Source of the DNA: Vicinamibacterales bacterium
GTDB lineage: Bacteria; Acidobacteriota; Vicinamibacteria; Vicinamibacterales; JAMQPK01
Direction: 5' to 3'
Assembly: GCA_023717525.1 (NCBI GenBank)
Contig: JAMQPK010000235.1
Location: 28,427 to 92,426, forward strand
DNA length: 64,000 bases
Below, piece after piece: positions 6,940-63,396 of this stretch (its first letter is position 1; every line of letters begins with the position of its first letter). The position numbers were made by a program, and so were the translations under genes. Below the pieces are notes generated by a model. The model did no database searches. It saw only the letters and a program-made list of their open reading frames with translations, and was not told where the DNA came from.

Positions 6940-7191
6940 TCAACGGTCCGAGGAGTCGATGTCTGGAAAATCCACGACGGTGTAGCCGTGCAGTTGCCAG
7001 TCGCGCGTGGGTGGTTTCCGTCGCTCTTCCATGCGGCGCTCGGCCCGCACGTCAATGGGGCGAGACTTCGCGCGCCGGTCTTCGCCGCGGCGGCGATCCC
7101 AGCGCACGTCGACATCGCTCACCGCGATCAGGCTGTCGATGAGCACGCTGTAGGTGGAAAACTCACCCCGCCGTACATAAATGACGCGCAT
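6940..7191 (-). CDS. small Arg-rich hypothetical protein (DRR/ERR repeats)
   Basis: Start taken at ATG 7191 (MRVIYVRRGEF...) inside ORF-track 6940..7425. Codons are almost all G/C-ending. Contains VRWDRRRGEDRRAKSRPIDVRAERRMEERRKPPTRDW. Confidence 0.5.
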   Translation of the reverse strand: MRVIYVRRGEFSTYSVLIDSLIAVSDVDVRWDRRRGEDRRAKSRPIDVRAERRMEERRKPPTRDWQLHGYTVVDFPDIDSSDR

Positions 7192-7339
7192 TTTGCGACC
7201 CAGCGCCGTCAGTGTATCGTCAGAGCAGGCCGCCCGAAAAGAACTATTGCCTGGGCAGGTTTCGGTTGTGCCTGCGCGGAGGCTTCCGGTATGCTTTTCG
7301 TTCCGGCGTTGGTTCACTTTCTCTAAGGAGCAGTTGGTG

Positions 7340-7834
7340 ATGAAGAAGGTATTCGCTCTTCTGGTTCTGGCCGCGTGCGCGCTGCCGGTTGTCGCTGGCG
7401 CGCAGAGCGCGACGGATCCAGCCAAGATGGTTCAGATTTTTTCGAATGCGCTGAAAACTGACGGTGCCACGCTCCAGGTGGTTCTGCTGAACGACCGCAC
7501 GGTCGAGGCGCTGTTTGGCCAGTCGCCCGCGAAAGCCGCGCTGCGAACCAAAGGGCGGATGACCACGGTGTTCTTCATTTCCGGCACCGTCACGAAGGAA
7601 TTCGAGTTCGATCCAACCTTGAAGGTCGAGCAGAAGGGCAAGACGTTCGACGGGAAGGCGTCGAGCATGAAGAACTTCACCGCCGGAAAAATTGCGAAGG
7701 GCGAACAGATTCAAGGGATGGTGGAGTTGCCTGAGAAGCTGGATCTCTACGAGCCGTTCAAGGTGACGCTGTCCGGGAAGAGCGTGGAGTTCCGGCTCGG
7801 CGAGGACGACGTGAGGGATTACGGGAATCGGTAG
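7340..7834 (+). CDS. secreted hypothetical protein
   Basis: ATG 7340 is preceded by an AAGGAG RBS (7325-7330). Signal peptide MKKVFALLVLAACALPVVAGA. The longer ORF-track start 7181 lacks both. Confidence 0.7.
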   Translation: MKKVFALLVLAACALPVVAGAQSATDPAKMVQIFSNALKTDGATLQVVLLNDRTVEALFGQSPAKAALRTKGRMTTVFFISGTVTKEFEFDPTLKVEQKGKTFDGKASSMKNFTAGKIAKGEQIQGMVELPEKLDLYEPFKVTLSGKSVEFRLGEDDVRDYGNR

Positions 7835-7886
7835 ATTTGAAATGTAAAATCTGAAATTTCAAATTTCAGATTTCAGAGTTCCAGAT
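7835..7886. repeat. AT-rich 7-bp periodic micro-repeat hairpin (TCTGAAA/TTTCAGA family)
   Basis: TTTGAAA/TCTGAAA words are followed by their complements. Perfect 12-bp stem AAATCTGAAATT (7847-7858) / AATTTCAGATTT (7862-7873) with a 3-nt loop. Confidence 0.8.
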
Positions 7887-7890
7887 TGAC

Positions 7891-7926
7891 GAGGGCCGGG
7901 AGGAATTCTTCCCGGCCCTCTTTTTT
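7891..7926 (+). terminator. rho-independent terminator between convergent genes
   Basis: 10-bp GC stem GAGGGCCGGG (7891-7900) / CCCGGCCCTC (7911-7920), followed by TTTTTT (7921-7926). Confidence 0.7.
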
Positions 7927-7927
7927 G

Positions 7928-10018
7928 CTAGGGCAGAGCGAGCGCGATCAACTCGGCGGGCCGCGCCGGCGCCGAGACGGATACGACGATGTACTGCTTG
8001 TTGTTCAGCATGTAGGTCATGGGCACGCCGGTGGTATTTGCCGGTAGCAGAATCTCGGAGACGATCTCGCCGGTCGCCTTGTCGTACGAGCGGAACCACG
8101 ATCCGGTTTGTCCGTTCACGGTCTCCAATGGGCCGCGTTCACCAGCCCAGAGCAGCGTCTTCGTCACCATGATGCCCAGCCGCCCGCCACGGCCGGTCTT
8201 GGGGATATCCACGCCTTTCAGCATGGGGTGGTTCTTGATCGCGTCGGGCGTGTTGCCAACCGGCTTCATCCAGACGTGATCGCCGGTGTTCATGTTGATC
8301 GCCGTGATGCGGCCGTACGGCGGCTTCACGAGCGGCAACCCGAACACGGTGGTCGGCGGAAGCGCCGGTCCTGCCCCCGCACCTCTCGCACCTTCCGCAC
8401 CCGCCGCACCTCCCGCACCTCTTCCTCCTCGCCCTCCCGCCGCCGCGTCGTCGCCTCCGCGGCCTCCACGTCCTCCGCCTCCTTCACCGCCGCCGCCACC
8501 GCCCTGGATGTAGTTCATGTTCGAGCGTGACGGATCGTGAATGAGGCTCAGGCGCGTAGGCGCCGTCGTCGAAAAGATGTACACGATGCCCGTTTCGGGG
8601 TCGAAGCAGCCGCCTTCCCAGTTCGCGCCGCCGGTTGCCGCCGGCAACATCAGCAGTCCGGCCTTTCCTCCTTCGCCCATCACGATCGGTGGAGTGAAGA
8701 TCGGACCTATCTTGTGCAGGCCGGCAATGCGAAGGGCCTCGGCCTTGATCTCCGGCGTCCAGTCGAGCAGATCCGCTTCCGAGACACCCTGGCGTTCATA
8801 TGCTGCCGGTTTGGTGGGGTACGGCTGCGTCGGCGAATACCACTCGCTCGGAACGGTGCCTTTTTCAACCGGCTTTTCGACAATCGGCCACACTGGCTGA
8901 CCGGTCATCCGATCGAATGTGTAAAGCCAGCCCTGCTTTGATGGCACCGCGACGGCTTTGATGGCTTTGCCATCGACCGTGATGTCCATCAGGATAGGTG
9001 GGGAAGGGAAGTCCCAGTCCCAGATATCGTGATGGATCGCCTGGTAGTACCAATAGCGTTTGCCGGTGTTCAGATCGAGGCTGACCACGCAGTCCGTGAA
9101 GAGATTGGCGCCGGGCCGATGACCGCCGAAATAATCGCCGGTCGCCATCTCTGTGGAGAGGTAGACACGATTGGCAACTTCATCGATCGTGATCGCGGCC
9201 CAGTTGCCGGCGTTGCCGGTGTACGACCACGAATCGTTTTCCCAGGTTTCGTTGCCCTGTTCACCCGGCTGCGGAATCGTGTGGAAGATCCACAGGCGCT
9301 TCCCGGTGCGCACGTCGTATCCGCGTACATAGCCCTTGGTGTTCTCCTTCGTCTTGGGTGCGCCACCGGGCAGATGGGCGGCACCGATGACCACGACGTT
9401 GCCACCGACCACCGGAGGAGCGTTGATGCCGATCTCGCCGGTAATCGGATCGACTGACGGCTGATCCAGCTCGGTCTTCAAATCGACGACACCGTTGCGT
9501 CCGAACGACGAGACAGGGATTCCCGTCTTCGCGTTGAGCGCCACAAGGTGATAGCCGGGAGTGATCGTCAGTATCCGCTCGTCGCCCTTGCCGTCGGTCC
9601 AGTAGGCGACACCGCGGCCCGATCCCTGACGCGGCGCACTCTCGCCGCGCTTGCCTTCGTCCATGCGCCACATCCAGAGCTGTTCGCCCGTGGTGGGATC
9701 GAGCGCGACAACGTTGCGCCGTGTGCCGGCCTGCGCGTAGAGGACGCCGTTGACCATCAGCGGCGTCACCTGCATGTTGTAGTCGGGCCGCGGGCCGAGA
9801 TTGTCCGTCTTGAAACGCCAGGCAACACGGAGGTTCTTGGCGTTCTCTTTATTGATTTGGTCGAGGGGCGAGTATTTCGTGCTGCCAGGCTCGCCGGCGT
9901 AGGCGCGCCACTCGCCGTTCTTCGTGCCGTATTGACCCGCCACCGGCGCCGTGCTCCACGCAAGAAGCAGCGCTAAGGGAACAAGCCGAACGATTCTGCG
10001 ACAGCGGGCCAGCGACAT
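7928..10018 (-). CDS. PQQ-dependent dehydrogenase (quinoprotein 8-bladed propeller), secreted, paralogue 1
   Basis: Signal peptide. EWRAYAGEPGSTKYSPLDQIN...LRVAWRF N-terminus, HHDIWDWD motif, W-rich propeller repeats. AAGGAG RBS before ATG 10018. Gly/Arg-rich insert at aa 506-552. Confidence 0.88.
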   Translation of the reverse strand: MSLARCRRIVRLVPLALLLAWSTAPVAGQYGTKNGEWRAYAGEPGSTKYSPLDQINKENAKNLRVAWRFKTDNLGPRPDYNMQVTPLMVNGVLYAQAGTRRNVVALDPTTGEQLWMWRMDEGKRGESAPRQGSGRGVAYWTDGKGDERILTITPGYHLVALNAKTGIPVSSFGRNGVVDLKTELDQPSVDPITGEIGINAPPVVGGNVVVIGAAHLPGGAPKTKENTKGYVRGYDVRTGKRLWIFHTIPQPGEQGNETWENDSWSYTGNAGNWAAITIDEVANRVYLSTEMATGDYFGGHRPGANLFTDCVVSLDLNTGKRYWYYQAIHHDIWDWDFPSPPILMDITVDGKAIKAVAVPSKQGWLYTFDRMTGQPVWPIVEKPVEKGTVPSEWYSPTQPYPTKPAAYERQGVSEADLLDWTPEIKAEALRIAGLHKIGPIFTPPIVMGEGGKAGLLMLPAATGGANWEGGCFDPETGIVYIFSTTAPTRLSLIHDPSRSNMNYIQGGGGGGEGGGGRGGRGGDDAAAGGRGGRGAGGAAGAEGARGAGAGPALPPTTVFGLPLVKPPYGRITAINMNTGDHVWMKPVGNTPDAIKNHPMLKGVDIPKTGRGGRLGIMVTKTLLWAGERGPLETVNGQTGSWFRSYDKATGEIVSEILLPANTTGVPMTYMLNNKQYIVVSVSAPARPAELIALALP

Positions 10019-10033
10019 ATAGACTCCTTTGCC

Positions 10034-10127
10034 TAAAGTTCTAAAGTTCTAGAGTTCTAAGGTTCTAGAGTTCTACGGTTCCAGGTTCGAACTCTAGAAC
10101 CCTAGAACCGTAGAACCCTAGAACCTT
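10034..10127. repeat. 8-bp periodic inverted micro-repeat array (GGTTCTAG/CTAGAACC family)
   Basis: About 6 GTTCTANN words, then about 4 CTAGAACC-type words. Arms 10059-10081 and 10105-10127 pair at 22 of 23 positions (hand alignment). Central palindrome GTTCGAAC at 10085-10092. Confidence 0.85.
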
Positions 10128-18939: not shown

Positions 18940-19062
18940 ATTGAAGATTGTGGAATTGGAGAATTGGGCAATTGTTGTTTGATTGACCATTGAAGACCAA
19001 CGACTGAGACCAACGACCAACGCCTAGGACTAACGACCAACGACCAACGACCAATGACCAAA
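18940..19062. repeat. composite 7-bp periodic array: ATTGNNG words (18940-18996), then ACCAACG words (18996-19062)
   Basis: attgaag attgtgg aattgga ... attgaag | accaacg actgag accaacg accaacg cctagg actaacg accaacg accaacg accaATG accaaac. The last words contain the start codon of the next gene. Confidence 0.85.
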
Positions 19063-24337: not shown

Positions 24338-24999
24338 TCGAGTTGCGCGGCGTATCCAAAACGGTCAAGAGCGGCGACCAACAGCTCACTATTCTTCATC
24401 CCATCGACCTGCTGGTGCCGTCTGGGCAGCGGATGGCCATCGTCGGGCCGTCGGGCAGCGGGAAATCGACGCTGCTTGGCCTCATTGCGGGACTGGATGC
24501 GCCGACAACGGGTTCGATCCTTGTGGACAGCACCGACATCACCAGACTCGGGGAAGATGATCTGGCAAGGCTGCGGGGCGCCAAGATTGGGTTCGTCTTC
24601 CAGTCGTTCCACCTGATTCCCTCGCTGACTGCGCAGGAAAACGTCCTCGTGCCGATGGAGATCGCGGGGCGCCGCGACGCGGCTGTACGTGCGCGCGCAT
24701 TGCTCGCTGAGGTCGGTCTTGCCGACCGCGGTCATCACTACCCGTCGCAGCTGTCCGGCGGCGAGCAACAGCGTGTCGCGATTGCTCGCGCGCTCTCGAA
24801 CGAGCCGGTGATCGTGCTGGCCGATGAGCCGACCGGAAATCTCGACAGCTCGACCGGCCATCAGGTGATCCAACTGTTGCTCGGCATCAATCAGGCTCGC
24901 GGCACGACGCTCGTCGTTGTGACGCACGATACGGAGATCGCCTCGATGGCCGATGCGCGGATTTCTCTGAAAGACGGACGGGTGGTACCTGGAATTTGA
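24334..24999 (+). CDS. ABC transporter ATP-binding protein (YbbA/LolD-like)
   Basis: ATG 24334 overlaps the upstream stop (ATGA). Walker [10 protein letters not shown], signature LSGGEQQRV, Walker [15 protein letters not shown]-track start 24304 is an alternative. Confidence 0.88.
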
Positions 25000-25064
25000 A
25001 ATCTGAAATTTTAAATGTGAAATCTGAAAGTGGTAATGATCCAATCATCAATCATCAATCTTCA
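24993..25064. repeat. 7-bp periodic array: TNTGAAA words (24993-25030), then ATCATCA/CAAT words (25037-25064)
   Basis: tttgaaa tctgaaa ttttaaa tgtgaaa tctgaaa gtggtaa tgatcca atcatca atcatca atcttca ATG. Fills the whole spacer between the ATPase stop and the permease start. Confidence 0.8.
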
Positions 25065-27581
25065 ATGAGGTTCGTCGTACTAACGGCCATTCGGGAAACA
25101 CGCGCGGCGTGGACGCGGCTGGTGTTCTTCTTCGTTTGCATCGCAATCGGCGTGGGAGCCATCGTTGCGCTGCGCTCGATCATTCAGAGCGTTCGGCAAG
25201 TGCTGTCGACCGAAGCCAAAACGCTGATTGCGGCCGATATTCTGCTTTCGACCGATCGTCCGTGGCAGCCGGGCACGCCTGAGTTGATTGCGGCTCGAGT
25301 GTCGGCTGTGCCGGGTGCACAGCGGATCGCTTCGACCGAACTGCCGACCATGGCCAGGCCCGCTGAAGAGAGTGCGGGGAAGGGGGGCGTTGCGAGAGTT
25401 GTCGAGCTCCGCGCCGTGCAGCCAGGCTTTCCGTTCTACGGCCAGCTGACACTGCAGGACGGGCGTCCCTATTCGCATGATCTCCTGAAGGACAAGGGGG
25501 CGCTCGTCAGGCCGGAGTTGCTGGCCCAACTCGGTCTACGCGTCGGCGACCGCGTGGCGATCGGCAAAGCGCAGTTCACGATTCGCGGCGTCATCTCGAA
25601 TGAACCGGGACGGTCCTTGAGCGCGTTCAGTCTTGGACCGCGTGTGCTCATCGATGACCAGGAACTTTCCGATACGGGCCTGTTGACGTTTGGCAGCCGG
25701 GTCGTGCGGCAGGAGCTGCTTCGCGTGCCCGAATCGGCGATCGATGCCCTGGCGCGCGACCTTCAGAGCAAGCTGCAGCCCCAGTTCGTTCGCGTGCGGT
25801 CCTATCGGGATCGCCAGGAGCAAATCGGCGAAGACTTCGAGCGCGCCGAGAACTACCTGAGCCTGGTCGGGCTCGTCATCGTCGTGCTCGGCGGGATCGC
25901 AGTGTCGAGTGTGACGCGGGTGTTCGTGCGACAGAAGATCAAGAGCATCGCGATTATGAAGTGCGTCGGCGGCACCAGCCGTCAGATCTTTGCCGTGTAT
26001 TTACTGCAGGCCCTTGCGCTGGGCGTGCTGGGCAGCGTGATTGGCGTCGCCCTGGCTGCCATCGCGATCGCCGTCATACCCGCCGACATGAATCAAATCG
26101 GCACCATCACGGTGACGTACGGCTTGACGCGTTCGGCCGTTGCTCAAGGCGTTGGCATCGGCACGCTCGTCGCGTTGCTGTTCGCGATGGTGCCGCTGCT
26201 GGAAGTGCGGCGCGTGAAACCGTCCCTGCTGCTGAGGCACGAGACGAGCGGACGGCGATTCGACTGGCTTCAGTGGATCGCCGCGGCGCTTGTCGGCGCG
26301 GCGCTCGTGAGACTGGCGACATGGCAGGCGGCGTCGCTGGTTGTGGGCCTCAGCGTATGTGCGGGCTTTATCGGGCTCACGGTGATTCTGTATCTGGCTG
26401 GCATGGCTCTGACGTGGATGACAAGACCGCTCACGCGGTCCAGTTGGTTTCCGATGCGGCAGGCTGTGTTGCATCTCCGGCGCCCTGGGAATCAGACCAG
26501 CGTCATTCTGCTGACCGTCGGCCTTGGCGCATTTTTCATCATGGGTGTCCGCGGGCTTCAAGTCGGTCTGCTGAACCAGTTCGCCATGCAGATTGGCGAG
26601 GAAACACCCGATCTGTTCCTCGTCGATATTCAGAAGGATCAGGTCGACCCTCTGCGGGTGTTTCTTGCTGACCGCCTGCCGGGCACGGAGGCCAACCTGC
26701 TGCCTGTGCTCAGAGCCCGAGTGACGGGGCGCGGTGTCAGCTTCGAAGAGATGGAGGATCTGAAGGGCCGCGGAATGTTGTCGCGCGAGTACACGATCAC
26801 GTATCGAGGCGGGCTCGAGCCGAACGAGACGCTTGTGGCAGGGCGTTTCCCGAATCCTGGAGAGGTGTCGATCGAGGAAAGCATCCGCCAGCGGTTCAAC
26901 ATCAGCATCGGCGACGTGATGCGCTTCGACGTGCTGGGCCGTTCCGTCAACGCGACAGTGACCGGGGTTCGCCATGTTGAGTGGCGTGACGGGCGTAGCG
27001 GCGGCTTCATGTTCGTCTTCGGGGCCGGCACGTTCGAGAGCGCGCCGCACTGGTTCATTGCTCCAGTGAAGGCGAACACGGCGAATGCCGCCGATCGAGC
27101 CAGGCTGACCCACGATCTCGTCGTCCGGTTCCCGAACGTGTCCGTCATCGACTTGCGCGAGATTCTTCAGGCCGTCCGTAAGGTGTTTGGCGTGGTCACC
27201 GTGGCGATCGACGTGGTCGGCACGCTCGTGATTCTTACGGGCGGGCTGATTCTCGTTGGCGCGGTTGCCGTTACGAAGTTTCAGCGCGTATACGAGGCCG
27301 CGATTTTCAAGACCCTTGGCGCGAGCTCTCGGACGATGGCGGCGATGCTGATGGTCGAGTACGGCCTGCTGGGTACGTTGGCGGGCGCAATCGGCTCATT
27401 CGGCGCGCTCGCGCTTGGTTGGGGCGTCAGCCGCTATGCGTTGGACATTCCCTGGCGGCCGGCGCTGCACGAGAACGTCATCAGTACCGTGGTTACTTCA
27501 CTGCTCATCATGACGATAGGCGTTGTGGCCAGCGCCGACGTCCTGAGGCGGAAGCCGCTTGCGACGCTCCGGGCTGAATAG
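25065..27581 (+). CDS. ABC transporter permease with two FtsX domains (YbbP-like)
   Basis: Start set to ATG 25065 (MRFVVLTAIRETRAAWTRLVFFF...). The 23 codons upstream in the ORF track only translate the repeat array. Polytopic, with large periplasmic loops. Confidence 0.85.
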   Translation: MRFVVLTAIRETRAAWTRLVFFFVCIAIGVGAIVALRSIIQSVRQVLSTEAKTLIAADILLSTDRPWQPGTPELIAARVSAVPGAQRIASTELPTMARPAEESAGKGGVARVVELRAVQPGFPFYGQLTLQDGRPYSHDLLKDKGALVRPELLAQLGLRVGDRVAIGKAQFTIRGVISNEPGRSLSAFSLGPRVLIDDQELSDTGLLTFGSRVVRQELLRVPESAIDALARDLQSKLQPQFVRVRSYRDRQEQIGEDFERAENYLSLVGLVIVVLGGIAVSSVTRVFVRQKIKSIAIMKCVGGTSRQIFAVYLLQALALGVLGSVIGVALAAIAIAVIPADMNQIGTITVTYGLTRSAVAQGVGIGTLVALLFAMVPLLEVRRVKPSLLLRHETSGRRFDWLQWIAAALVGAALVRLATWQAASLVVGLSVCAGFIGLTVILYLAGMALTWMTRPLTRSSWFPMRQAVLHLRRPGNQTSVILLTVGLGAFFIMGVRGLQVGLLNQFAMQIGEETPDLFLVDIQKDQVDPLRVFLADRLPGTEANLLPVLRARVTGRGVSFEEMEDLKGRGMLSREYTITYRGGLEPNETLVAGRFPNPGEVSIEESIRQRFNISIGDVMRFDVLGRSVNATVTGVRHVEWRDGRSGGFMFVFGAGTFESAPHWFIAPVKANTANAADRARLTHDLVVRFPNVSVIDLREILQAVRKVFGVVTVAIDVVGTLVILTGGLILVGAVAVTKFQRVYEAAIFKTLGASSRTMAAMLMVEYGLLGTLAGAIGSFGALALGWGVSRYALDIPWRPALHENVISTVVTSLLIMTIGVVASADVLRRKPLATLRAE

Positions 27582-30760: not shown

Positions 30761-30847
30761 ATTGGAGATTGAGTGATTGAAGATTGAGTGATTGAGATTG
30801 TCTCATTGGCTCAATGTTTCAATCTGCAATCTGCAATTCTTCAATGT
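30761..30847. repeat. 7-8 bp periodic inverted array (ATTGAGN / NTCAAT family) inside the MacAB-type operon
   Basis: attggag attgagtg attgaag attgagtg attgag attgtctc attgg | ctcaatg tttcaatc tgcaatc tgcaattc ttcaatg. Left and right halves are approximate reverse complements. Confidence 0.8.
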
Positions 30848-40770: not shown

Positions 40771-40774
40771 AGAA

Positions 40775-40859
40775 GGTTCTAAGGTTCTAGCGTTCTAGGG
40801 TTCTACGGTTCTTGGAACACTAGAACCATAGAACCCTAGAACGCTAGAACGCTAGAACC
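40775..40859. repeat. 8-bp periodic inverted array (GGTTCTAG/CTAGAACC family), strong hairpin
   Basis: Left arm 40784-40811 pairs with right arm 40823-40850 at 27 of 28 positions. After a 2-nt mismatch, 7 more pairs (40775-40781 / 40853-40859). 11-nt loop. Confidence 0.88.
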
Positions 40860-40866
40860 CTGGAAT

Positions 40867-49511: not shown

Positions 49512-50214
49512 GACGATGCCCCTCCATTGCCGTTCTGAGCTTCCGGACGGCGCGGAACAAGTGCACTCGAACGGTCGACTCGTTCAGGCCCGTGATCGCC
49601 GCCACATCCCGGGTCGAGTGATCGTTGTAGTGGCACAACATGAAGACCAGACGCTGCCGTCCAGGCAGCTTGCGCACGGCGGTCATCAGGAGGTCGCGCC
49701 ACTCGCGAGCCAGCAGTGCATCTTCTGGCGATCGGTCCGCCGGCCGGATGGCGCGCTCGACTGTGTCCTGATCGCGGCGCCCGATATCGGCCACCGGCAT
49801 GAGCCAACGCGCGCGGCGCGTGCGGGCTTTCTGCCGATCCAGGCAGCCATTAATCAAAATTCGCGTGAACCACACTTCGAACGACAAGCCCCGCTGGAAC
49901 GACGCGATATGCGTGTACGCTTTCACAAACGCATCCTGCACGGCTTCGTCCGCATCGGCGGCATCGTGCAGGTAGTGCCACGCGATGCGCGACGCGCGGC
50001 GCTGCTGTCGCGCGACGATTTGAGAAAACAGGTCGCGGGCGCCTCCATGATTTCCAGCGGCCTCGAGATCTTGCACCTGACCTGCGAGATCGGTTTCCAG
50101 CTCCGGCGCACGGGCAGACCCCGAGGCAAGGCGCTCCTCCCCAGGAGCGACAGAGGGCATAACCCTCGCCGAAAGCGCTGATACACCGGCCGTCACGTGG
50201 TCGCGCCTGCTCAT
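49501..50214 (-). CDS. ECF-type RNA polymerase sigma-70 family factor
   Basis: Region 2 (DADEAVQDAFVKAY...F..W..RILIN) and region 4 (LPGRQRLVFMLCHYNDHSTRDVAAITGLNESTVRVHLFRA). The N-terminal extension makes the start uncertain. Confidence 0.85.
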   Translation of the reverse strand: MSRRDHVTAGVSALSARVMPSVAPGEERLASGSARAPELETDLAGQVQDLEAAGNHGGARDLFSQIVARQQRRASRIAWHYLHDAADADEAVQDAFVKAYTHIASFQRGLSFEVWFTRILINGCLDRQKARTRRARWLMPVADIGRRDQDTVERAIRPADRSPEDALLAREWRDLLMTAVRKLPGRQRLVFMLCHYNDHSTRDVAAITGLNESTVRVHLFRAVRKLRTAMEGHRHAF

Positions 50215-50298
50215 ACTTGGATACGACGCTCCGAGGCTTTCATTTACAGCAGTTTACGGGTGCTCGACGCCCTTAATGATACCAGATACCATGAGCCG

Positions 50299-51735
50299 GT
50301 GCTGTTTGAACCGGTCATTGGCCTCGAAATTCACGCCAGACTGCTAACTGAAACCAAGATCTTCTGCGGCTGCAGCACGCGGTTCGGCAATCGCCCGAAT
50401 ACGAACGTCTGCCCGGTATGCCTCGGGCTGCCTGGCGCCCTGCCGGTGCTGAACCGCCGGGCCGTCGATTTTGCCGCCAAAGCCGCGCTCGCCCTGAACT
50501 GCGAGGTCCAGGAGCGGTCGATTTTCGCCCGGAAGAACTACTTCTATCCGGACCTGCCGAAGGGCTACCAAATCTCTCAGTACGAGCTGCCGCTGGCGAC
50601 CGAGGGCGCGCTCGAGTACACCGCCAACAGCGTCAGCAAGCGCGTCGGCATCATCCGGGTGCACATGGAAGAAGACGCGGGAAAATCGCTGCATGAAGGC
50701 TTTGCCGATTCGGATCAGAAGACGTATCTCGACTTCAATCGCAGCGGCACGCCACTGATTGAGATCGTCACACACCCCGACTTGCGGTCCGCCGCTGACG
50801 CCGCGGATGCGTTCCGGCGCCTCCGCGAGATCCTGACAACGCTTGGGGTGAACGACGGCAATATGGAAGAGGGAAGCCTTCGCTGTGACGCCAACGTTTC
50901 TGTGCGGCCAGTGGGACAGCAGACGCTGGGCACGAAAACCGAGGTGAAGAACATCAACTCCTTCCGCTATCTCGAGAAGGCACTGGAGTACGAAATCGGG
51001 CGGCAGACCGGCGTGCTGCAGTCGGGCGGCACCATCGTGCAGGAGACGCGGCTCTGGGACGCGGACGCCGGCGAGACGTTCTCGATGCGGAGCAAGGAAG
51101 ACGCGCACGACTATCGATACTTTCCCGAGCCGGACCTGCCGCCTGTGCAGCTCGCGCCGGCGCGCATCCAGGAAATCCGCGGCACAATTCTCGAGCTGCC
51201 GGACGCGCGGCGCCTGCGGTTGATGGCGGATTACGGTTTGTCCGAGCTGGACGTGAAGGCGCTCGAGCGCAGCGACCTCGTCGCATTGTTCGAAGGCACC
51301 GCCAAAGCGGCCGGCAACGCGAAGGCCGCGTTCAACTGGATCTCTGGCGAGGTCGCGCGGAAGCGAAACGAACTGGGCGAGCGGTTCGACCGCGAGCGCG
51401 TGTTGCCGCAGTCGCTGGCGAAATTGATCGGCATCGTCGAGAGCGGGGCAATCAGCGCGTCGATCGCCAAGACGGTGTTCGAGCGGATGTACGACAGCGG
51501 CCGCAGCGCAGACGAGATCGTCGAGCAGGACGGGCTCGCGCAGATCGGCGACGAGGGTGCCCTGATGGCCAGTGTTCGGTCGGTGATCGATGCCAATCAG
51601 GACGCCGTCGCTCAGTATCGCAACGGCAAGACGGGGACGATCGGATTCCTCGTCGGTCAAGTGATGAAGGCAACCGGCGGAAAGGCCAAGCCCGCGCTTG
51701 TGAACGATCTGTTGCGCCGGGAGCTGGACCAGTAG
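50299..51735 (+). CDS. gatB: Asp-tRNA(Asn)/Glu-tRNA(Gln) amidotransferase subunit B
   Basis: FEPVIGLEIHARL...KIFCGC, VCPVCLGLPGALP, EEDAGK, and a C-terminal YqeY-like domain. Start set to GTG 50299 to match the usual N-terminus. ORF-track start 50197 would overlap the divergent sigma gene. Confidence 0.9.
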   Translation: MLFEPVIGLEIHARLLTETKIFCGCSTRFGNRPNTNVCPVCLGLPGALPVLNRRAVDFAAKAALALNCEVQERSIFARKNYFYPDLPKGYQISQYELPLATEGALEYTANSVSKRVGIIRVHMEEDAGKSLHEGFADSDQKTYLDFNRSGTPLIEIVTHPDLRSAADAADAFRRLREILTTLGVNDGNMEEGSLRCDANVSVRPVGQQTLGTKTEVKNINSFRYLEKALEYEIGRQTGVLQSGGTIVQETRLWDADAGETFSMRSKEDAHDYRYFPEPDLPPVQLAPARIQEIRGTILELPDARRLRLMADYGLSELDVKALERSDLVALFEGTAKAAGNAKAAFNWISGEVARKRNELGERFDRERVLPQSLAKLIGIVESGAISASIAKTVFERMYDSGRSADEIVEQDGLAQIGDEGALMASVRSVIDANQDAVAQYRNGKTGTIGFLVGQVMKATGGKAKPALVNDLLRRELDQ

Positions 51736-51749
51736 AAACTGTTGCTCGC

Positions 51750-52442
51750 GTGATCGAAACGCATCAACTCTCCAAACTCTACAGTCGCGGTGTCTACGCG
51801 CTTCGTGACCTCTCGATGAAGATCGAGAAGGGCGAGTTCGTCTTTCTGACGGGCCCAAGCGGCGCCGGCAAATCTACACTGCTTCGGCTGCTGCTGCGCG
51901 AGAGCCTGCCAAGCGAGGGATCGATTGTCGTCGCCGGCCGCAACCTCGCAAGGTTGACGCCGCGTCAGGTTCAGGCCTATCGCCGCAGCGTCGGGTTCGT
52001 GTTCCAGGATTTCAAGCTCATTCCCCGCAAAACCGTTCTGGAGAACGTGTCGCTGGTGCCGCGAGTACTGGGCGCCCCGGTGTCGACGCAGCAGCGCAAG
52101 ACCTTTCAAGTGTTGAAGTGGGTCGGCCTTCAGCACCGGATGAACGCGTTTCCCATGGAGTTGTCGGGCGGCGAGCAGCAGCGCGTGGCGATCGCGCGCG
52201 CGCTCGTCAACGATCCGATGCTCATTCTGGCGGACGAACCGACGGGGAACCTGGATCCCGACCTGTCGCTCGACATCATGAACCTGCTGCGGGAAGCGAA
52301 CGCGCGCGGTACGACCGTTCTCGTGGCGACGCACGACCGCGAGCTCATCCGGCGAGTCGGCCGTCGAGCCGTAGCGCTCGACCATGGGCGGCTGATCGAC
52401 GCCGACGAACACGCGGGGGCGGAGGCCGATGCGGGCGCTTAG
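51750..52442 (+). CDS. ftsE: cell division ATP-binding protein FtsE
   Basis: [40 protein letters not shown]. Followed by ftsX with a 14-nt overlap. Confidence 0.9.
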   Translation: MIETHQLSKLYSRGVYALRDLSMKIEKGEFVFLTGPSGAGKSTLLRLLLRESLPSEGSIVVAGRNLARLTPRQVQAYRRSVGFVFQDFKLIPRKTVLENVSLVPRVLGAPVSTQQRKTFQVLKWVGLQHRMNAFPMELSGGEQQRVAIARALVNDPMLILADEPTGNLDPDLSLDIMNLLREANARGTTVLVATHDRELIRRVGRRAVALDHGRLIDADEHAGAEADAGA

Positions 52443-53325
52443 GTATTTCCTCGACGAAGCGGTGGCCAGCCTATGGCGAGGCGCGAAGACGACGCTCATC
52501 GCGATTGTGACGATTGCGGTTGCCTTTTTCGTGCTCGGGGGCTTCCTGATGATCACGACGAATCTGGAGCGGCTGCTGTCACGTTGGCAGGAGGCCGCGG
52601 AATTCTCCGTGTACCTGCGCGACGAGGCGGCAGCAGAGCAACGGACGGGGATTGAGACCGTTCTGCGCGGAAGCCACCTTGTGCGCGCGCTCGAGGTCAT
52701 CTCCAAGGAAGAAGCCCTGAAACGATTCAAGCGCGACTTTGGGGCCCTGGCCGAAGCGACGGGGGATTTGACCGAGAATCCGCTGCCCGCCTCGATCGAG
52801 GTGCGTCTGGTGCCGGATGCGAACCCCGCAGATGTCCAGGCGCTCGCCGCGAAGGCATCGTCCCTGCCGGGGGTAGCCGACGTCCGCTACGATCGCCAAT
52901 GGATTCAGCGCCTTACGAGGGCGGTCGATCTGGTTCGGGCGGGAGGGTTCGGCTTGGCGGCCATTCTGGTGCTGGCGGCGGCGCTTACCGTAGCCAGCGT
53001 GATTCGCCTGGCCCTCGTGGTACGCCGTGAAGAAATTCACATCATGCAGCTCGTTGGCGCACCGCTTGGCTACATCGGCGGTCCTTTCGTCGTCGAAGGT
53101 CTTCTTCAGGGCGGGGCTGGCGCCGGTATTGCCCTCGGGATGCTGTGGATGACGTTTTTGTTTGCTCGTGCGAGGATGAACCCGCTGCTGATCAACGGGA
53201 TCGACCCTGCCGGGCTGGCCTTTCTGCCTCTGTCGATGATCGCCGCGATTCTGGCCGGCGGGATGATTGTGGGATGCATCGGCGGGCTGATTGCCGCCCG
53301 GACTGCTCGTGAGATTGCTGACTGA
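52429..53325 (+). CDS. ftsX: cell division permease-like protein FtsX
   Basis: N-terminus LRYFLDEAVASLWRG..., a periplasmic domain, and a C-terminal 3-TM FtsX domain with EIHIMQLVGA. Confidence 0.88.
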   Translation: MRALRYFLDEAVASLWRGAKTTLIAIVTIAVAFFVLGGFLMITTNLERLLSRWQEAAEFSVYLRDEAAAEQRTGIETVLRGSHLVRALEVISKEEALKRFKRDFGALAEATGDLTENPLPASIEVRLVPDANPADVQALAAKASSLPGVADVRYDRQWIQRLTRAVDLVRAGGFGLAAILVLAAALTVASVIRLALVVRREEIHIMQLVGAPLGYIGGPFVVEGLLQGGAGAGIALGMLWMTFLFARARMNPLLINGIDPAGLAFLPLSMIAAILAGGMIVGCIGGLIAARTAREIAD

Positions 53326-53379
53326 GAAAAACGATTGAAAAGGGTTCCCGATCCCCTCTAGACTGGATCTACCCGTTAC

Positions 53380-53643
53380 ATGACGCAGTCGAAAGCCCCT
53401 GGGACTCTGACTGATTTTTATCGGGAAGAGTTTCTGAAACATCAGCGCTGTCTTGAACGGCAGCGCGAGTACTACTCACACAGCGCGATCGCATCGGTCG
53501 AACAAGCCCTCACCCGCGTCATTGCCCAACTCGAACAGCTCTCCACGAAAGATAACGCCGATCAGGTGGTGAGCGGCCTTCTCAGGAAATTCAATGTGGT
53601 GACAGGCCTATCGGGCTGGAGCGATCCGAAGAACGTCCACTGA
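53380..53643 (+). CDS. small hypothetical protein with atypical (A/T-ending) codon usage
   Basis: 87-aa ORF with no motif. Many A/T-ending codons by eye, unlike its neighbours. Its TGA is 1 nt before the open frame of the next gene. Confidence 0.4.
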   Translation: MTQSKAPGTLTDFYREEFLKHQRCLERQREYYSHSAIASVEQALTRVIAQLEQLSTKDNADQVVSGLLRKFNVVTGLSGWSDPKNVH

Positions 53644-53785
53644 GATTCCGTCCCTGTCCATTTTTCGCCAGCACTTCCTGACCATCGCGCGCGGAGCGAT
53701 CGACGCCGCGTCCCCACACCGTCTCATCGACCGCACCCTGCGCGACTCCGACGTCGCCTCACGGCTGGAAGGGCGCACGCTTCGG

Positions 53786-54943
53786 GTGATCGCGGTCGGT
53801 AAGGCCGCGCCGTTCATGGCCGTGGCGTTTGCAGAGAGCGTGCGCTCCCAGATCCGTGACGGCATTGTCATCGGAACCCACCTTCCGATCGAACTGCCGG
53901 CGCCGTTTGAATGGATACCGTCCAGCCACCCGCTGCCGGACGAGCGCAGCGTGGCGGCCGGCCGGCGAGCGCTCGATCTCGCCAGGCAAACCGACGCTCA
54001 GGAGACCCTCGTTGTGTTGCTGTCAGGGGGCGCCTCGGCGTTGATGGCCGTGCCGGCGGGGAGTTTGACGCTCGATGACAAGCGAACGGCGGTGAACGCC
54101 CTGCTGAAAGGCGGCGCCGACATCACCGCGCTGAATACGATTCGGAAGCATCTTTCTGCCGTGAAGGGTGGGCGCCTGGCGGCGGCGGCACAGGGCCCCA
54201 CCGTCTGCTTCGCCATTTCCGATGTCGTTGGCGATGACGTCAGCGTGATCGGATCGGGACCGACGGTTGCGGATCCGTCGACGTATCGGGATGCGTGGAG
54301 TTACGTCGAGCGCTACGGCGTCGAGCGTCAGCTGACGGCTGCGGCTCTGGGTTATTTACGCGCTGGTTTGGAAGGCAAGATCGAGGAAACGCCCAGTCCC
54401 GGCGACCCTCGGCTCGCGCGCTCTTTGACCCGGGTGGTCGGTGGACGCTTTCATGCGATGACCGGCGCCGCCGAAGCCGCGCGGTCCCTCGGTTACGACG
54501 CCGTGACGATCGACGAGCCGGTTGTCGGCGATGCGCGGACGCAGGGTCCGAGTCTGTTGAATATGGCGAGGGCCGTCGCCGCGGGGAAAAGCCGGCCGCT
54601 TGCGGTGATTGCCAGCGGCGAGACGACGGTCAAGGTGGCTGGCAAGGGACGAGGCGGCCGCAATCAGGAGATGGCCTTGTCGGTTGCGGGGGCGCTCGCG
54701 AATGATTCAGGCGAGGTTGCGGTCGCCAGCATTGGGACCGATGGCATCGATGGGCCTACTGATGCAGCCGGGGCATTCACCGACACCACAACCGCCGTCC
54801 GCGCCAGGCAGCAGTCGCTCGATCCTCTCGCCTATCTTGCCGACAACAATGCCTACGCCTTCTTCGAGCGGCTGGGTGACCTCATCATGACGGGCCCCTC
54901 GACGACGAATGTCGGGGATATTCAGATCGTACTTTTCAGATAG
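53786..54943 (+). CDS. glycerate kinase / hydroxypyruvate-reductase-like protein (MOFRL family); true 5' end probably upstream
   Basis: VIAVGKAAPFMA, LLSGGASAL and SGETTV...GGRNQE motifs. The first canonical start is GTG 53786. The same frame is open and homologous-looking from about 53642 (see findings). Confidence 0.85.
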   Translation: MIAVGKAAPFMAVAFAESVRSQIRDGIVIGTHLPIELPAPFEWIPSSHPLPDERSVAAGRRALDLARQTDAQETLVVLLSGGASALMAVPAGSLTLDDKRTAVNALLKGGADITALNTIRKHLSAVKGGRLAAAAQGPTVCFAISDVVGDDVSVIGSGPTVADPSTYRDAWSYVERYGVERQLTAAALGYLRAGLEGKIEETPSPGDPRLARSLTRVVGGRFHAMTGAAEAARSLGYDAVTIDEPVVGDARTQGPSLLNMARAVAAGKSRPLAVIASGETTVKVAGKGRGGRNQEMALSVAGALANDSGEVAVASIGTDGIDGPTDAAGAFTDTTTAVRARQQSLDPLAYLADNNAYAFFERLGDLIMTGPSTTNVGDIQIVLFR

Positions 54944-54945
54944 GT

Positions 54946-55006
54946 GTCAGGCGATAGTCGATAGACGTTGGTCGTTAGTCCCAGTCGTTGGTCGTTGGTC
55001 CTCGCC
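54946..55006. repeat. 7-bp periodic array, CGTTGGT orientation (inverted copy of the ACCAACG element)
   Basis: gtcaggc gatagtc gatagac gttggtc gttagtc ccagtc gttggtc gttggtc. The reverse complement of 54966-55000 matches 55254-55288 at 34 of 35 positions. Confidence 0.85.
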
Positions 55007-55045
55007 ATTGCTCAACGCAACGAGAGCGAAGAAAAGGGGCTGGAT

Positions 55046-55156
55046 ATGGGCATTCTTGGCCGCAGACTACTAGCGATCGCGGCGGTTCTGATTCTCGGTC
55101 ATGTTTTGCTTTTCATGCTGGCATATTTGTTTTTAGACATCCCCACATGTTGCTGA
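55046..55156 (+). CDS. candidate 36-aa hydrophobic peptide (very tentative)
   Basis: MGILGRRLLAIAAVLILGHVLLFMLAYLFLDIPTCC. AAGGGG lies ~9 nt upstream. Low-GC codons atypical for the window. It could equally be non-coding cargo between inverted repeats. Confidence 0.25.
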   Translation: MGILGRRLLAIAAVLILGHVLLFMLAYLFLDIPTCC

Positions 55157-55246
55157 ACGTGCATCGACCCAACCACCGCGGCATCGTTCGACGTATGAAC
55201 GCTCCAATCGTATTGGTGCCAGCCGCGCAGCCAATGTGTTTTACTT

Positions 55247-55309
55247 GAACTGAGACCAACGACCAACGACTGGGACTAATGACCAACGACCAACGACCAA
55301 CGACCAAGA
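55247..55309. repeat. 7-bp periodic array, ACCAACG orientation, abutting the rnr start codon
   Basis: gaactgag accaacg accaacg actggg actaatg accaacg accaacg accaacg accaaga aGTG. 55250-55307 matches 19004-19061 at 54 of 58 positions. Confidence 0.85.
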
Positions 55310-55310
55310 A

Positions 55311-57581
55311 GTGATAAACCGCGAAAATATTCTGAAGTTGATGCGCGACAAGGTCACGCATCCTGCGACGCCACGTGAGCTGCTGCGCACTCTTCGCATT
55401 CCTCAGGAGGAGCGCGCGACCTTTCGCCGACTCCTGAAGATGCTCGTCACGTCTGGCGAGTTGATTGAAACCAAAGGCGGGCGCATCGGCCTGCCCGACA
55501 AGATGGATCTCGTCGTCGGGCGGCTCGAGACGCATGCGAGCGGGTTCGGCTTCGTCATTCCCGACAAGACCGGCGAAGCGACGCCGGACGTCCACATTCC
55601 CGCCGGGAACATCAAGGAAGCGATGCACGGTGATCGTGTCCTCGCCCGAATCGAACGCCGTACGGGCGACGATCGCATCGAAGGCCGAATCATCCGAATT
55701 CTCGAGCGCGGCAGCTCGACCATCGTCGGTCGATTCGATCGAGACGAGTCCGGGCTTGGGTTCGTGCAGCCGTTCGACCGGCGGGTACTGACCGATGTGC
55801 ACATTCCAACCGGCCAGTCGGCGGAGGCCGAGGTGGGCGAGATGGTTGCCGTGGAGATCACCCGATGGCCGACGCCGGCGCGCGGGCCGGTGGGCCGGGT
55901 CATACAGGTACTCGGCAACATCGATGAGAAGGGGGTCGATACCGAAATCATCATCAGAAAGTTCGCCATCCCCGACGCCCATGGGGAGGCGGCCGTCGAA
56001 GAGGCTCGTGGATTCGGGACGGTGTCGCCCGCCGACATCGCTGGCCGGACGGATTTTCGCCAGACGACCACCGTGACCATTGACGGCGAGCACGCGCGCG
56101 ATTTCGATGACGCGATCAGCATCGAGAAACTGGCGAATGGCCACTATTGGCTGGGCGTGCACATCGCGGACGTTGCGCACTACGTCCAGGAGGGAAGCGC
56201 GCTCGATCTGGAAGGGTACGATAGGGCCACGTCGGTGTACTTCCCGGACCGCGCGGTTCACATGTTCCCATCGGAACTCGCGACCGGCATCTGCAGCTTG
56301 AATCCTCGGGTCGACCGACTGGTGCAGAGTTGCCTGATGGAGATCGACCATCACGGTGCGGTCGTGCGGTACGAGTTTCATGACGGCGTCATCAACACCG
56401 CTGCGCGCATGACCTACACCGATGTGCACGCCATTCTCACCGAGAAGCCGGCGGCGCTCATGGGTACGTATCGCGAACTGGTTCCAAAGTTCGAGCTGAT
56501 GGGCGAGTTATTCCATGTGCTGAACGGCCGGCGCAAGCGCCGGGGCTCGATCGACTTCGACCTTCCCGAAGCAGAAGTCGTACTGGATGACGCCGGCCGC
56601 GTGGCCTCGATCGTCGAGTCGGAGCGGAACCTTGCGCACAAGCTGATCGAAGAGTTCATGCTGCTGGCCAACGAGACGGTCGCGTCCTACGTCGATGGGC
56701 GCGGGATGCCGAGCCTCTATCGCATCCACGAGCAGCCGGACCCGCTGAAGGTCGAGCAGTTCGAAGAATTCGTCTCAGGATTCGGGTATTCGCTGGCGGC
56801 GCCGCCGGGTGGCGTGCGCCCGAGAAACTTTCAGAAGCTGCTCGAGAAACTGCACGACAAACCGGAGGCGCGGCCTATCGCGTTCCTGATGCTGCGGACC
56901 ATGCAGAAGGCGAGGTATGCCGAGCGAAACCTCGGCCACTTCGGCCTCGCGGCAGATTCGTATACGCATTTCACCTCGCCTATCCGGCGCTATCCCGATC
57001 TCGTCGTTCACCGGATGCTTCGCGAAGTGCGGCATCGCGGCATCGACATGGAGCGCGTCGAAGAGCTCGAGCAGGATCTGCCGGGCGTCGCGAAGCACTG
57101 TTCCGACATGGAACGGCGCGCCGACGAAGCTGAGCGCGAACTGGTGCAGTGGAAGAAAGTGCGGTTCATGGCCGACAAGGTAGGCGACGAATTCGAAGGC
57201 TACGTCACAGGCGTCGCGGCCTTCGGCTTGTTCGTTCAACTATCCGAGCACTTCGTCGAAGGGCTCGTGCACGTGTCGAGCATGGCCGACGACTACTATC
57301 GTTTTCTCGAGCGGAGCCACTCGCTGAAGGGAGAAAACACGGGCAAGGTCTATCAGCTTGGTCAGCGGGTGAAGGTGCAGGTCGTGCGCGTCGATATGGA
57401 TCGCCGCCAGATCGATCTTGGTCTCGTCGAAATTCTCGAAACCGTCAGAGGTGATGAATCACGCCGGGGACCCCGACGCAGTAAGGCGCGCCCGAAGCAC
57501 GAGCAAAGAAAAGGACCTCGGCGGAAGCAGCGCCCGGGCCGCCGGGAGCGTCGAAAGCGGGGAGGACGAAGGGGCAGATAG
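55311..57581 (+). CDS. rnr: ribonuclease R (RNase II/VacB family 3'-5' exoribonuclease)
   Basis: N-terminal HTH/CSD region, RNB catalytic domain (TIDGEHARDFDDAIS..., SVYFPDRAVHMFP, RYPDLVVHR), S1 domain (GYVTGVAAFGLFVQL), and a Lys/Arg-rich tail. Confidence 0.93.
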   Translation: MINRENILKLMRDKVTHPATPRELLRTLRIPQEERATFRRLLKMLVTSGELIETKGGRIGLPDKMDLVVGRLETHASGFGFVIPDKTGEATPDVHIPAGNIKEAMHGDRVLARIERRTGDDRIEGRIIRILERGSSTIVGRFDRDESGLGFVQPFDRRVLTDVHIPTGQSAEAEVGEMVAVEITRWPTPARGPVGRVIQVLGNIDEKGVDTEIIIRKFAIPDAHGEAAVEEARGFGTVSPADIAGRTDFRQTTTVTIDGEHARDFDDAISIEKLANGHYWLGVHIADVAHYVQEGSALDLEGYDRATSVYFPDRAVHMFPSELATGICSLNPRVDRLVQSCLMEIDHHGAVVRYEFHDGVINTAARMTYTDVHAILTEKPAALMGTYRELVPKFELMGELFHVLNGRRKRRGSIDFDLPEAEVVLDDAGRVASIVESERNLAHKLIEEFMLLANETVASYVDGRGMPSLYRIHEQPDPLKVEQFEEFVSGFGYSLAAPPGGVRPRNFQKLLEKLHDKPEARPIAFLMLRTMQKARYAERNLGHFGLAADSYTHFTSPIRRYPDLVVHRMLREVRHRGIDMERVEELEQDLPGVAKHCSDMERRADEAERELVQWKKVRFMADKVGDEFEGYVTGVAAFGLFVQLSEHFVEGLVHVSSMADDYYRFLERSHSLKGENTGKVYQLGQRVKVQVVRVDMDRRQIDLGLVEILETVRGDESRRGPRRSKARPKHEQRKGPRRKQRPGRRERRKRGGRRGR

Positions 57582-61048: not shown

Positions 61049-61184
61049 AGAAACTAGAAATTGGAGACTATGAACTAGAAAGTAAGTGGAAAGCAGATAC
61101 AGAAAAGGCCCGGTGGGTTAAACCCAGCCGGGCCTTTTCACTTTCGAACTTACTTTCCAGTTTCTACTTCTTAGTTTCTAGTTG
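61049..61184. repeat. 8-bp periodic AT-rich inverted arms flanking a GC-rich terminator stem
   Basis: Left arm agaaacta gaaattgg agactatg aactagaa agtaagtg gaaag... Right arm ctttcgaacttactttccagtttctacttcttagtttctagtt is its approximate reverse complement (GAAAGTAAGT / ACTTACTTTC). Confidence 0.75.
61103..61138. terminator. bidirectional rho-independent terminator between the TonB-like gene and groEL
   Basis: AAAAGGCCCGGTGGGTT-AA-ACCCAGCCGGGCCTTTT: a GC stem with one bulge, an A-run on one side and a T-run on the other. Confidence 0.75.
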
Positions 61185-63318: not shown

Positions 63319-63396
63319 GGTGATATGGCGATTTGATTGGGCGATTTGATTGAGCATTTCCTATCACCCAATCACCTATCCCGAAATCGCCAATCT
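63319..63396. repeat. 7-bp-word inverted array with a perfect 13-bp tandem duplication (GATTG/CAATC family)
   Basis: GGCGATTTGATTG occurs twice in tandem (63327-63339, 63340-63352). Complementary words on the right: TATCACC, CCCAATCA, CGAAATCGCC, CAATC. Confidence 0.75.

Follow-up and report, generated by a model that had tools for sequence, protein, structure and literature searches.

The spacer between the glycerate-kinase-like gene glxK and the RNase R gene rnr in a Vicinamibacterales bacterium (Acidobacteriota) contains two inverted blocks of ACCAACG/CGTTGGT units, and the question this locus raises is whether it is a mobile element, a small gene displayed in a stem-loop, or a feature of another kind. 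The locus occupies positions 54946-55309 of a 64,000-nt stretch of contig JAMQPK010000235.1, which was analysed as a whole and is called the window below. A first-pass annotation, made from the letters alone, had proposed a structure resembling a miniature inverted-repeat transposable element (MITE) or, alternatively, a long stem-loop presenting a small RNA or a type-I-toxin-like peptide gene. The present analysis favours a different reading, with a probability of about 0.68: the blocks are genome-specific tandem heptamer arrays, similar to the short tandemly repeated repetitive sequences (STRRs) or long heptameric simple sequence repeats (SSRs) of other bacteria, and the interior between them is a lineage-specific spacer that ends in the probable rnr promoter. 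The glxK-rnr arrays extend a known, poorly understood kind of repeat, and they constitute neither a MITE nor a toxin locus; most likely, the 3' untranslated region (UTR) of glxK carries one arm and the 5' UTR of rnr the other.

The comparison set comprised the window and 160 related loci (1.28 Mb in the array census, 2.57 Mb counting both strands), and 24 of these loci were treated as close relatives in the comparison of glxK-rnr spacers. Head-to-tail 7-nt units in at least three copies were taken as the mark of STRR-like arrays, those of the window were detected with Tandem Repeats Finder (TRF), and the sequencing runs X1, X3, X5 and X6 were compared through k=31 (Logan) contigs, which show presence, not absence. 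The Rnr protein is 91% identical to its counterpart in L001, a Vicinamibacteria metagenome-assembled genome (MAG), and ~82% identical to those of a group of Vicinamibacterales MAGs, and the best Joint Genome Institute (JGI) metagenome contig reaches 89%; these being the closest matches in the genome and metagenome scans, neither revealed a strain-level relative.

Inverted Heptamer Arrays in the glxK-rnr Spacer

The left, G/T-rich array begins 8 nt past the glxK stop codon, presumably within the glxK 3' UTR, and is an inverted copy of the right, A/C-rich array, which stops 3 nt short of the GTG start codon of rnr and includes no Shine-Dalgarno (SD) sequence. An inverted-repeat search delimited arms of 49 nt (54952-55000 and 55254-55302) that are 88% complementary and 253 nt apart, and recomputation reproduced the earlier hand alignment, in which the reverse complement of 54966-55000 agrees with 55254-55288 at 34 of 35 positions. 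TRF assigned a period of 7 to the left array (5.1 copies at 54966-55000), to the right array (7.9 copies at 55254-55307) and to a third array 36 kb away (9.9 copies at 18995-19061). The two arms of the locus mirror each other in the order of their unit variants, and did so better than unit-permuted arms in 297 of 300 trials. Folding of a 376-nt segment pairs both arms (z -6.4), which supports, on thermodynamics only, the earlier claim that they are able to close a stem, of ~35-49 bp; the right array taken separately (55250-55330) is unstructured, with a minimum free energy of -3.4 kcal/mol (z +0.6). A related strain in run X3 differs from the window at several positions in 55309-55332, including G55311A, which converts the rnr GTG to ATG and supports 55311 as the start codon.

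The sequence GACCAACGACCAACG, with at most two mismatches allowed, occurs 11 times in the window, always within the three ACCAACG arrays, against an expectation of 0.21, and none of 100 shuffles reached this number. All three copies have one irregular higher-order arrangement, GACCAACGACCAACGACTGGGACTAAYGACCAACG, and their likeness ends at the array edges; the third copy, whose 19004-19061 segment was found again to match 55250-55307 at 54 of 58 positions, is a lone arm with neither partner nor interior. In run X1, which contains 99% of the sampled words of 50000-54900, the array core has a depth of 216-273 vs 10-12 in the flanks, and 21-26 contigs, each with a depth of ~5-17, match the arrays with 2-5 mismatches. 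The common irregular unit order and the more than 20 matching X1 contigs bear out the view of the first-pass annotation that this is a discrete dispersed family and not local slippage, and the copies descend from a common sequence that was spread around the genome. The ACCAACG dimer ACCAACGACCAACG has no occurrence in the 160 related loci, against three arrays in the window, and the family is thus specific to the window's lineage; the viral-contig scan yielded no match to the higher-order array core.

The Interior and the Putative rnr Promoter

The last ~35 nt of the interior can be aligned with those relatives in which an A/C-rich array precedes rnr. The motif TGTGnnnTACT, represented here by TGTGTTTTACT, occurs eight times in 2.57 Mb, and six of these occurrences are located in rnr upstream spacers, directly before the A/C-rich array (the window, L001, L011, L017, L085 and L086), the other two having the form TGTGnTATACT. 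A partly conserved GCCAGCC..GC stretch lies directly upstream of TGTGTTTTACT, at about 55219-55234. The TRTGn extended -10 pattern is known from Gram-positive promoters (sigma-70). Positions 55235-55245 are best read as a putative rnr promoter with a predicted transcription start near 55252, which would place the whole right array in the 5' UTR. With its 3' end serving as the rnr promoter, the supposed cargo would be not a mobile cassette but an enlarged lineage-specific spacer. TATAGT or TATATT is found ~8-13 nt before the rnr ATG in 18 other spacers, those of 13 close relatives (L002-L009, L013, L081-L083, L087) among them, which would imply that most Vicinamibacterales have a leaderless rnr mRNA; a TRTGn promoter and an array leader are probably used instead in the sub-clade of the window.

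The interior has no second copy in the window, the 160 related loci or any indexed sequencing run; a period-7 test detected no decayed heptamer signal in it, and on neither strand is its fold better than that of shuffles. Searches of Rfam gave no match at the gathering threshold and, at E<=5, only a meaningless match to a long non-coding RNA (E 3.3). No intrinsic terminator was found in 54800-55400. The low GC content pointed out earlier is real (0.51 at 55007-55246 vs 0.63 and 0.62 in the 2-kb flanks and 0.62-0.63 in the window as a whole), but it does not mark the segment as foreign DNA, since array-bearing spacers in the window have GC contents of 0.40-0.52.

The Same Spacer in Relatives

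In close relatives the glxK-rnr spacer is 11-158 nt long, the 367 nt of the window being the longest in the group, and in most of the 24 (about 18, by eye) it contains arrays with other units. These include GGTTCY/RGAACC hairpins (L002, L004, L005, L006, L009, L083, L087), CCCTAAT/CCCCAAT arrays resembling telomere repeats (L007, L008, L013, L082), TTTTCAG arrays (L010, L012) and GGCTTCC units followed by AACTGAA or GACAACT (L011, L017, L085, L086); no arrays are present in L003, L014, L015 and L084. The units follow sub-clades, which indicates vertical inheritance with slow turnover. In the closest relative, L001, a G/T-rich arm is followed by a 45-nt interior with the promoter motif, an A/C-rich arm and a GTG codon.

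Beyond this spacer, the spacers downstream of rnr in L001-L017 (at about 7660-7790 and 9800-10030) keep related arrays across species, with units of the AGCTGGT/ACCAGCT and CTACTTT/CTTTCTA families, so that both position and unit family can persist over distances of ~82% protein identity. The 89%-identical relative L081 has no arrays and contains, at about 2700-2790, an ~80-nt hairpin (CCTTTACCACAGAGGACACGGAGG ... CCTCTGTGTTCTCTGTGGTAAAGG) unlike the others, possibly a member of another family of dispersed repeats. In distant relatives (L026, L032, L044, L046, L048, L061, L065, L078, L107, L130, L136, L147, L153), the spacer, at 420-615 nt, includes a conserved gene whose product, of ~140 aa, combines a single N-terminal membrane helix with a conserved LNFG motif; in many other relatives glxK and rnr are only 5-6 nt apart. 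The interior was also considered as a remnant of this ~140-aa membrane-protein gene, and the idea was rejected after a hidden Markov model search against the six-frame translation had given no signal.

Heptamer Arrays across Vicinamibacteria

Heptamer and octamer arrays occupy approximately one in six intergenic spacers across Vicinamibacteria, and about half of the neighbouring pairs are inverted. The commonest non-triplet tandem period in the comparison set is 7, with 122 period-7 arrays in the ~10% of the DNA that is non-coding vs 94 in the coding 90%, a ~10-fold non-coding enrichment, and the 98 stronger arrays comprise 74 distinct units. Arrays were found in 91 of ~570 spacers of at least 30 nt (16%), with no preference for gene orientation (convergent 18%, co-directional 16%, divergent 13%). 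Inverted copies of a single unit make up 16 of the 35 pairs of arrays lying next to each other, with gaps of 1-82 nt, and no pair consists of direct copies. The inverted pairs fold as long hairpins, with z-scores of -8.6 and -11.7 for the two in the window and -6.4 to -8.9 in L005 and L009. The G/T-rich arm comes first in 12 of the 16 inverted pairs, a polarity too weak to build on, and the strand composition of arrays near starts and stops shows, over all loci, a weak trend (27 vs 16) based on crude start-codon calls. In the window itself, TRF revealed about ten further intergenic arrays of 7-8 nt with other units, and all window arrays lie in spacers.

Weighing of Alternative Explanations

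A mobile origin, in which the arrays would be the terminal inverted repeats of a MITE- or REPIN-like non-autonomous element (REPINs being inverted doublets of repetitive extragenic palindromic sequences, REPs) and 54946-55309 would have been inserted by a transposase encoded elsewhere, is very improbable. It would suit the length and 88% complementarity of the arms, the dispersal of the arm sequence, of which run X1 contains some 20 or more nearly identical copies at a depth like that of the genome, and the exceptional length of the spacer among the 24 close relatives, and short repeats arranged in inverted doublets have a precedent in REPINs (PMC3116915). However, neither a target-site duplication nor a common flank is visible at the outer (..GTGTCAGG and AAGTGATA..) or inner junctions, the interior is single-copy, and the third copy is an arm without it. 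The arms are tandem SSRs and not palindromic REPs, a single arm being unstructured; both are present in X1 with exact flanks, i.e., as resident sequence; the interior has the conserved rnr promoter motif at its 3' end; L001 already has the same arm-promoter-arm layout; and no transposase was detected among the 22 window proteins scanned against Pfam. The inverted arms do exist, yet each is a tandem array from a family that has lone members too, and both belong to a clade-wide class found singly and in inverted pairs. The proposal of a MITE-like element is abandoned on these grounds, and the additional cargo copies it had led one to expect are missing from the window, the 160 related loci and the run index. 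The first-pass annotation had itself named conservation of the segment as ordinary rnr leader sequence as contrary evidence, and the conservation of its 3' end upstream of rnr in relatives comes near to that.

The annotation's other suggestion, a small RNA or a small membrane peptide gene, possibly type-I-toxin-like, shown in the loop of the stem, is considered highly unlikely, also if the peptide is taken as an accessory subunit. The open reading frame (ORF) at 55046-55156 is as described: it encodes MGILGRRLLAIAAVLILGHVLLFMLAYLFLDIPTCC, is preceded by AAAAGGGG and has an ATG with AAGGGG 6 nt upstream. Its 36-aa product, with RR at the N-terminus and a single clear hydrophobic helix, gives a sub-threshold match to the Pfam family CbtB (E=0.014, 16 bits vs a cut-off of 27), and the weak period-3 autocorrelation of the interior would fit a coding sequence. 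Yet the 47-aa extension of the peptide shares enough words with no protein among 5.8 billion in a shared-word search, NCBIfam has nothing for the peptide, and the ORF is absent from all 24 close relatives. The GC content at third codon positions is ~0.53 (hand count) vs ~0.75 in the genes of the window; 39% of shuffled versions of the 253 nt contain an ATG ORF of 36 codons or more, and an 86-codon ORF overlaps this one in another frame. No promoter or terminator consensus was found around it in 54800-55400, and neither an Rfam match nor excess structure on either strand supports a small RNA. Of the properties of a type I toxin-antitoxin locus, the hydrophobic ORF is present, but no promoter consensus, homologue, second copy or structured RNA was found, and the 36-codon ORF is most likely fortuitous.

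The heptamer-array reading has weaknesses of its own. The 253-nt gap between the arms is an outlier among inverted pairs, and the ~215 additional nt of interior (55001 to ~55215) are unique and unexplained by the model; their weak period-3 autocorrelation (z~2) leaves room for a decayed or real coding sequence. The -10 hexamer, TTTACT (in TGTG-T-TTTACT), lacks the canonical A at position 2, a simple sigma-70 scan of 54800-55400 gave no promoter, and the promoter, the leader and the read-through stem discussed below are all inferred from sequence. Pairing of the arms is weak in L001 (z +0.17). Slippage alone fails to explain the same irregular variant order in copies 36 kb apart, so that some dispersal mechanism is needed. 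Finally, 55005-55248, including the promoter motif, was not found in contigs of X1, X3, X5 and X6 at a likeness of at least 80%; the exact contigs of X1 end at 54988, with a 37-nt piece reaching 54995, and resume at 55250.

This last point underlies the proposal that the interior arose as an artefact of assembly or represents a minority allele, array-bounded contigs having been joined through foreign or rare sequence while the common allele has its arms closer together. X1 lacks the interior despite covering nearly all sampled words of the preceding sequence, the three other runs lack it likewise, and no indexed run contains it. Contigs of this kind, however, do not prove absence, and a unitig of ~280 nt and depth ~10 between array nodes of depth 100-270 might be removed by graph cleaning, if the assembler behaves as supposed; moreover, the missing part holds a promoter motif conserved at the expected place in five relatives, which a chimeric join would not produce. 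Graph cleaning of the short low-depth piece is the likeliest cause of the gap, and only a slim chance is given to an artefact or a minority allele. For the same reasons, the zero depth of the four runs over the interior was rejected as evidence of an empty site.

A Model for the Origin and Function of the Arrays

Under the favoured reading, that of tandem heptamer arrays around a promoter-bearing spacer, the arrays would probably grow and shrink by 7-nt replication slippage, and inverted pairs would be kept alike by quasi-palindrome template switching or gene conversion. Polymerase slippage has been proposed for heptamers (PMC4679880, PMC4692102), and template switching occurs at quasi-palindromes (PMC7202029). 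Arrays abut the start codons at 19054 (an isocitrate/isopropylmalate dehydrogenase (IDH) gene, with a Pfam match from residue 5), 25065 (an FtsX/MacB permease gene) and 55311 (rnr), ending 0-3 nt before them, in each case with no SD sequence. The balance tips slightly towards the view that transcripts from the internal promoter, which would carry the A/C-rich arm only, have in it a structure-free, SD-less translation leader.

No terminator separates the left arm from the promoter, and the arms would therefore pair in read-through RNA. Perhaps, in read-through transcripts from glxK, they form a duplex of ~35-49 bp ending 8 nt before the start codon, which would mask the leader and/or offer a target to an RNase III-type enzyme, but this part of the model is rather unlikely; equally doubtful is the suggestion that such a duplex would insulate rnr from upstream transcription. 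More speculative still, and improbable at present, is a general scheme in which Vicinamibacteria would use genome-specific heptamer arrays as modular cis-elements, the A/C-rich arrays acting as tunable SD-independent leaders and their G/T-rich partners as anti-leaders that silence or cleave read-through RNA, with spread by a copying process that keeps the variant order. If this were true, the glxK-rnr locus, with a promoter in its loop, would be a natural switch between a masked and an unmasked leader.

Other Arrays and Genes of the Window

The window is ordinary chromosome, with genes for pyrroloquinoline quinone (PQQ) dehydrogenases, MacB-type ABC transporters, an AcrB-type pump, the IDH-like protein, TatA and others (Pfam). 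The coordinates of the arrays and of the features of the glxK-rnr locus are collected in Table 1.

Table 1. Arrays, genes and other features of the window discussed in the text.
Feature	Position	Strand	Remarks
Array	7835-7887		unit ATTTCAA/CTGAAAT
Array	10033-10125		CTAAAGTT and inverted GAACCCTA
Third ACCAACG array	18995-19061	+	same orientation as right array; overruns ATG 19054 of IDH-like gene; no SD sequence
Array	24989-25066		CTGAAAT, then CAATCAT
Array	30765-30837		GATTGAGT, then CAATCTG
Array	40773-40865		AAGGTTCT and inverted GAACCCTA
glxK, glycerate-kinase-like (DUF4147 and MOFRL)	53786-54943	+	Pfam; tblastn against the L006 orthologue; stop TAG 54941-54943
Left array, G/T-rich	54952-55000	+	CGATAGT twice, then CGTTGGT units with an irregular TTAGTCCCAGT insert
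Interior ('cargo'), lineage-specific single-copy spacer	55001-55234		GC ~0.52
36-codon hydrophobic ORF	55046-55156	+	AAGGGG before it; probably not a gene
TGTGTTTTACT, putative TRTGn-type extended -10 motif for rnr	55235-55245	+	
Right array, A/C-rich	55249-55307	+	ACCAACG units; 20-nt higher-order period
rnr, RNase R (OB_RNB, CSD2, RNB and S1 domains)	55311-57581	+	Pfam and orthologue alignment; GTG start
Array	61154-61183		TTTCTAG
Array	63327-63352		GGCGATTTGATTG, period 13, two copies; outside the 7-8-nt class

The arrays at 10033-10125, between tandem PQQ-dehydrogenase genes, and at 40773-40865, between convergent genes, form near-perfect mirrored hairpins of 8-nt units (GTTCTA and two variable positions, together with the inverse of this unit); lacking a U-tract, neither qualifies as a canonical terminator. 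Those at 24989-25066 and 30765-30837 are located within two MacB-type ABC operons, each separating the gene of the ATPase from that of the FtsX/MacB permease, and are thus transcribed as intercistronic RNA. In the first of these operons, the CAATCAT array overruns the likely ATG of the permease gene at 25065, which has no SD sequence, and the start of the longest ORF, a TTG at 24996 within the array region, is probably wrong. The TGAAAT/ATTTCA array at 7835-7887 begins right at the stop codon of the gene 7181-7834 and is followed by a canonical intrinsic terminator at 7891-7927 (GGGCCGGGAGG..CCTCCCGGCCC and T6), which indicates that arrays and true terminators coexist. The longest and cleanest array seen, with 17.7 perfect copies of GGAAGAC, is in L070 (5949-6072) at a contig end, and a break that it caused in the assembly is probably why the contig stops there.

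The start of glxK is less clear. Homology to its orthologues begins near 53612, just past a TGA at 53600-53602, and a 73-codon ORF (53381-53602) lies just upstream of it; the first ATG, GTG or TTG in the glxK frame is at 53786, and the Pfam DUF4147 match begins at profile position 45. Either a non-canonical start codon or a frameshift or assembly error may account for this.

Comparison with Known Repeat Systems

The analysis removes a false lead, there being no new MITE and no new toxin peptide at glxK-rnr, and interest attaches to the clade-wide pattern of arrays rather than to the finding as first framed. The arrays, often mirrored hairpins and often reaching start codons that have no ribosome-binding site, are a barely described genome feature of very abundant, poorly studied soil bacteria, and a literature search turned up no account of them in Acidobacteria. 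What heptameric repeats do in bacteria and how they spread have been questions since the cyanobacterial STRRs, and a clade with many units and conserved positions offers good comparative material. In practical terms, k=31 assemblies break at the arrays, and gene callers can be misled by them, as ORFs such as 54968-55156 and 24996-27581 begin within an array.

The locus resembles a MITE in its size of ~360 nt, its inverted ends and the lack of a transposase inside; unlike a MITE, it has no target-site duplication, its interior is single-copy and contains the promoter motif of the neighbouring gene, and its ends are SSR arrays that are also found alone. REPs and REPINs, mobilised by REP-associated tyrosine transposases (RAYTs) (PMC3116915), are likewise short, abundant, intergenic and genome-specific, and are found both singly and as inverted doublets that can form hairpins. 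In contrast to REPs, which are individually palindromic and of fixed length, and to REPIN arms, which are tens of nt apart, the arms in the window are non-palindromic tandem arrays of variable length separated by 253 nt, and no RAYT was found among the 22 window proteins scanned.

Closer likenesses are offered by known heptamer arrays. The G-quadruplex arrays GGGAATC/GGGGATT of Xanthomonas and Nostoc (PMC4692102) are intergenic and keep their position between species while length and sequence vary; the complement of the Nostoc unit GGGGATT (CCCCAAT/CCCTAAT) fills the glxK-rnr spacer in L007, L008, L013 and L082, whereas ACCAACG/CGTTGGT has no G-runs and cannot form a quadruplex. In marine Beggiatoaceae, TAACTGA arrays immediately precede start codons, those of the largest class stopping 1 nt short of the codon, and a role in translation has been proposed (PMC4679880). 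They are characterised by one dominant unit across phyla, 2-6 copies and a near absence of inverted arrangement (one case), unlike the genome-specific families and frequent inverted pairs found here.

Also among the closest known kinds are the cyanobacterial STRRs and heptameric SSRs in general. One Calothrix STRR unit, TTGGTCA (reverse complement TGACCAA), nearly equals a unit of the arrays described here (CGACCAA). The STRRs consist of tandem 7-nt units in a few to ~ten copies, are overwhelmingly intergenic and include several unit families at many dispersed loci, with copy number and sequence changing fast from one relative to the next; their function is unknown, and slippage has been proposed for them as for other heptameric SSRs (PMC4692102, PMC4679880). 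The arrays of the window and its relatives share the head-to-tail 7-nt units, the intergenic location, the many loci with several unit families and the fast change of unit and copy number at one and the same spacer, the glxK-rnr spacer holding other units in close relatives. They differ in belonging to Acidobacteriota, in the diversity of their units (74 among 98 arrays), in the commonness of 8-nt units and in the mirrored arrangement of almost half of the neighbouring pairs, which form long hairpins and which, at glxK-rnr, place an arm on each side of the putative promoter.

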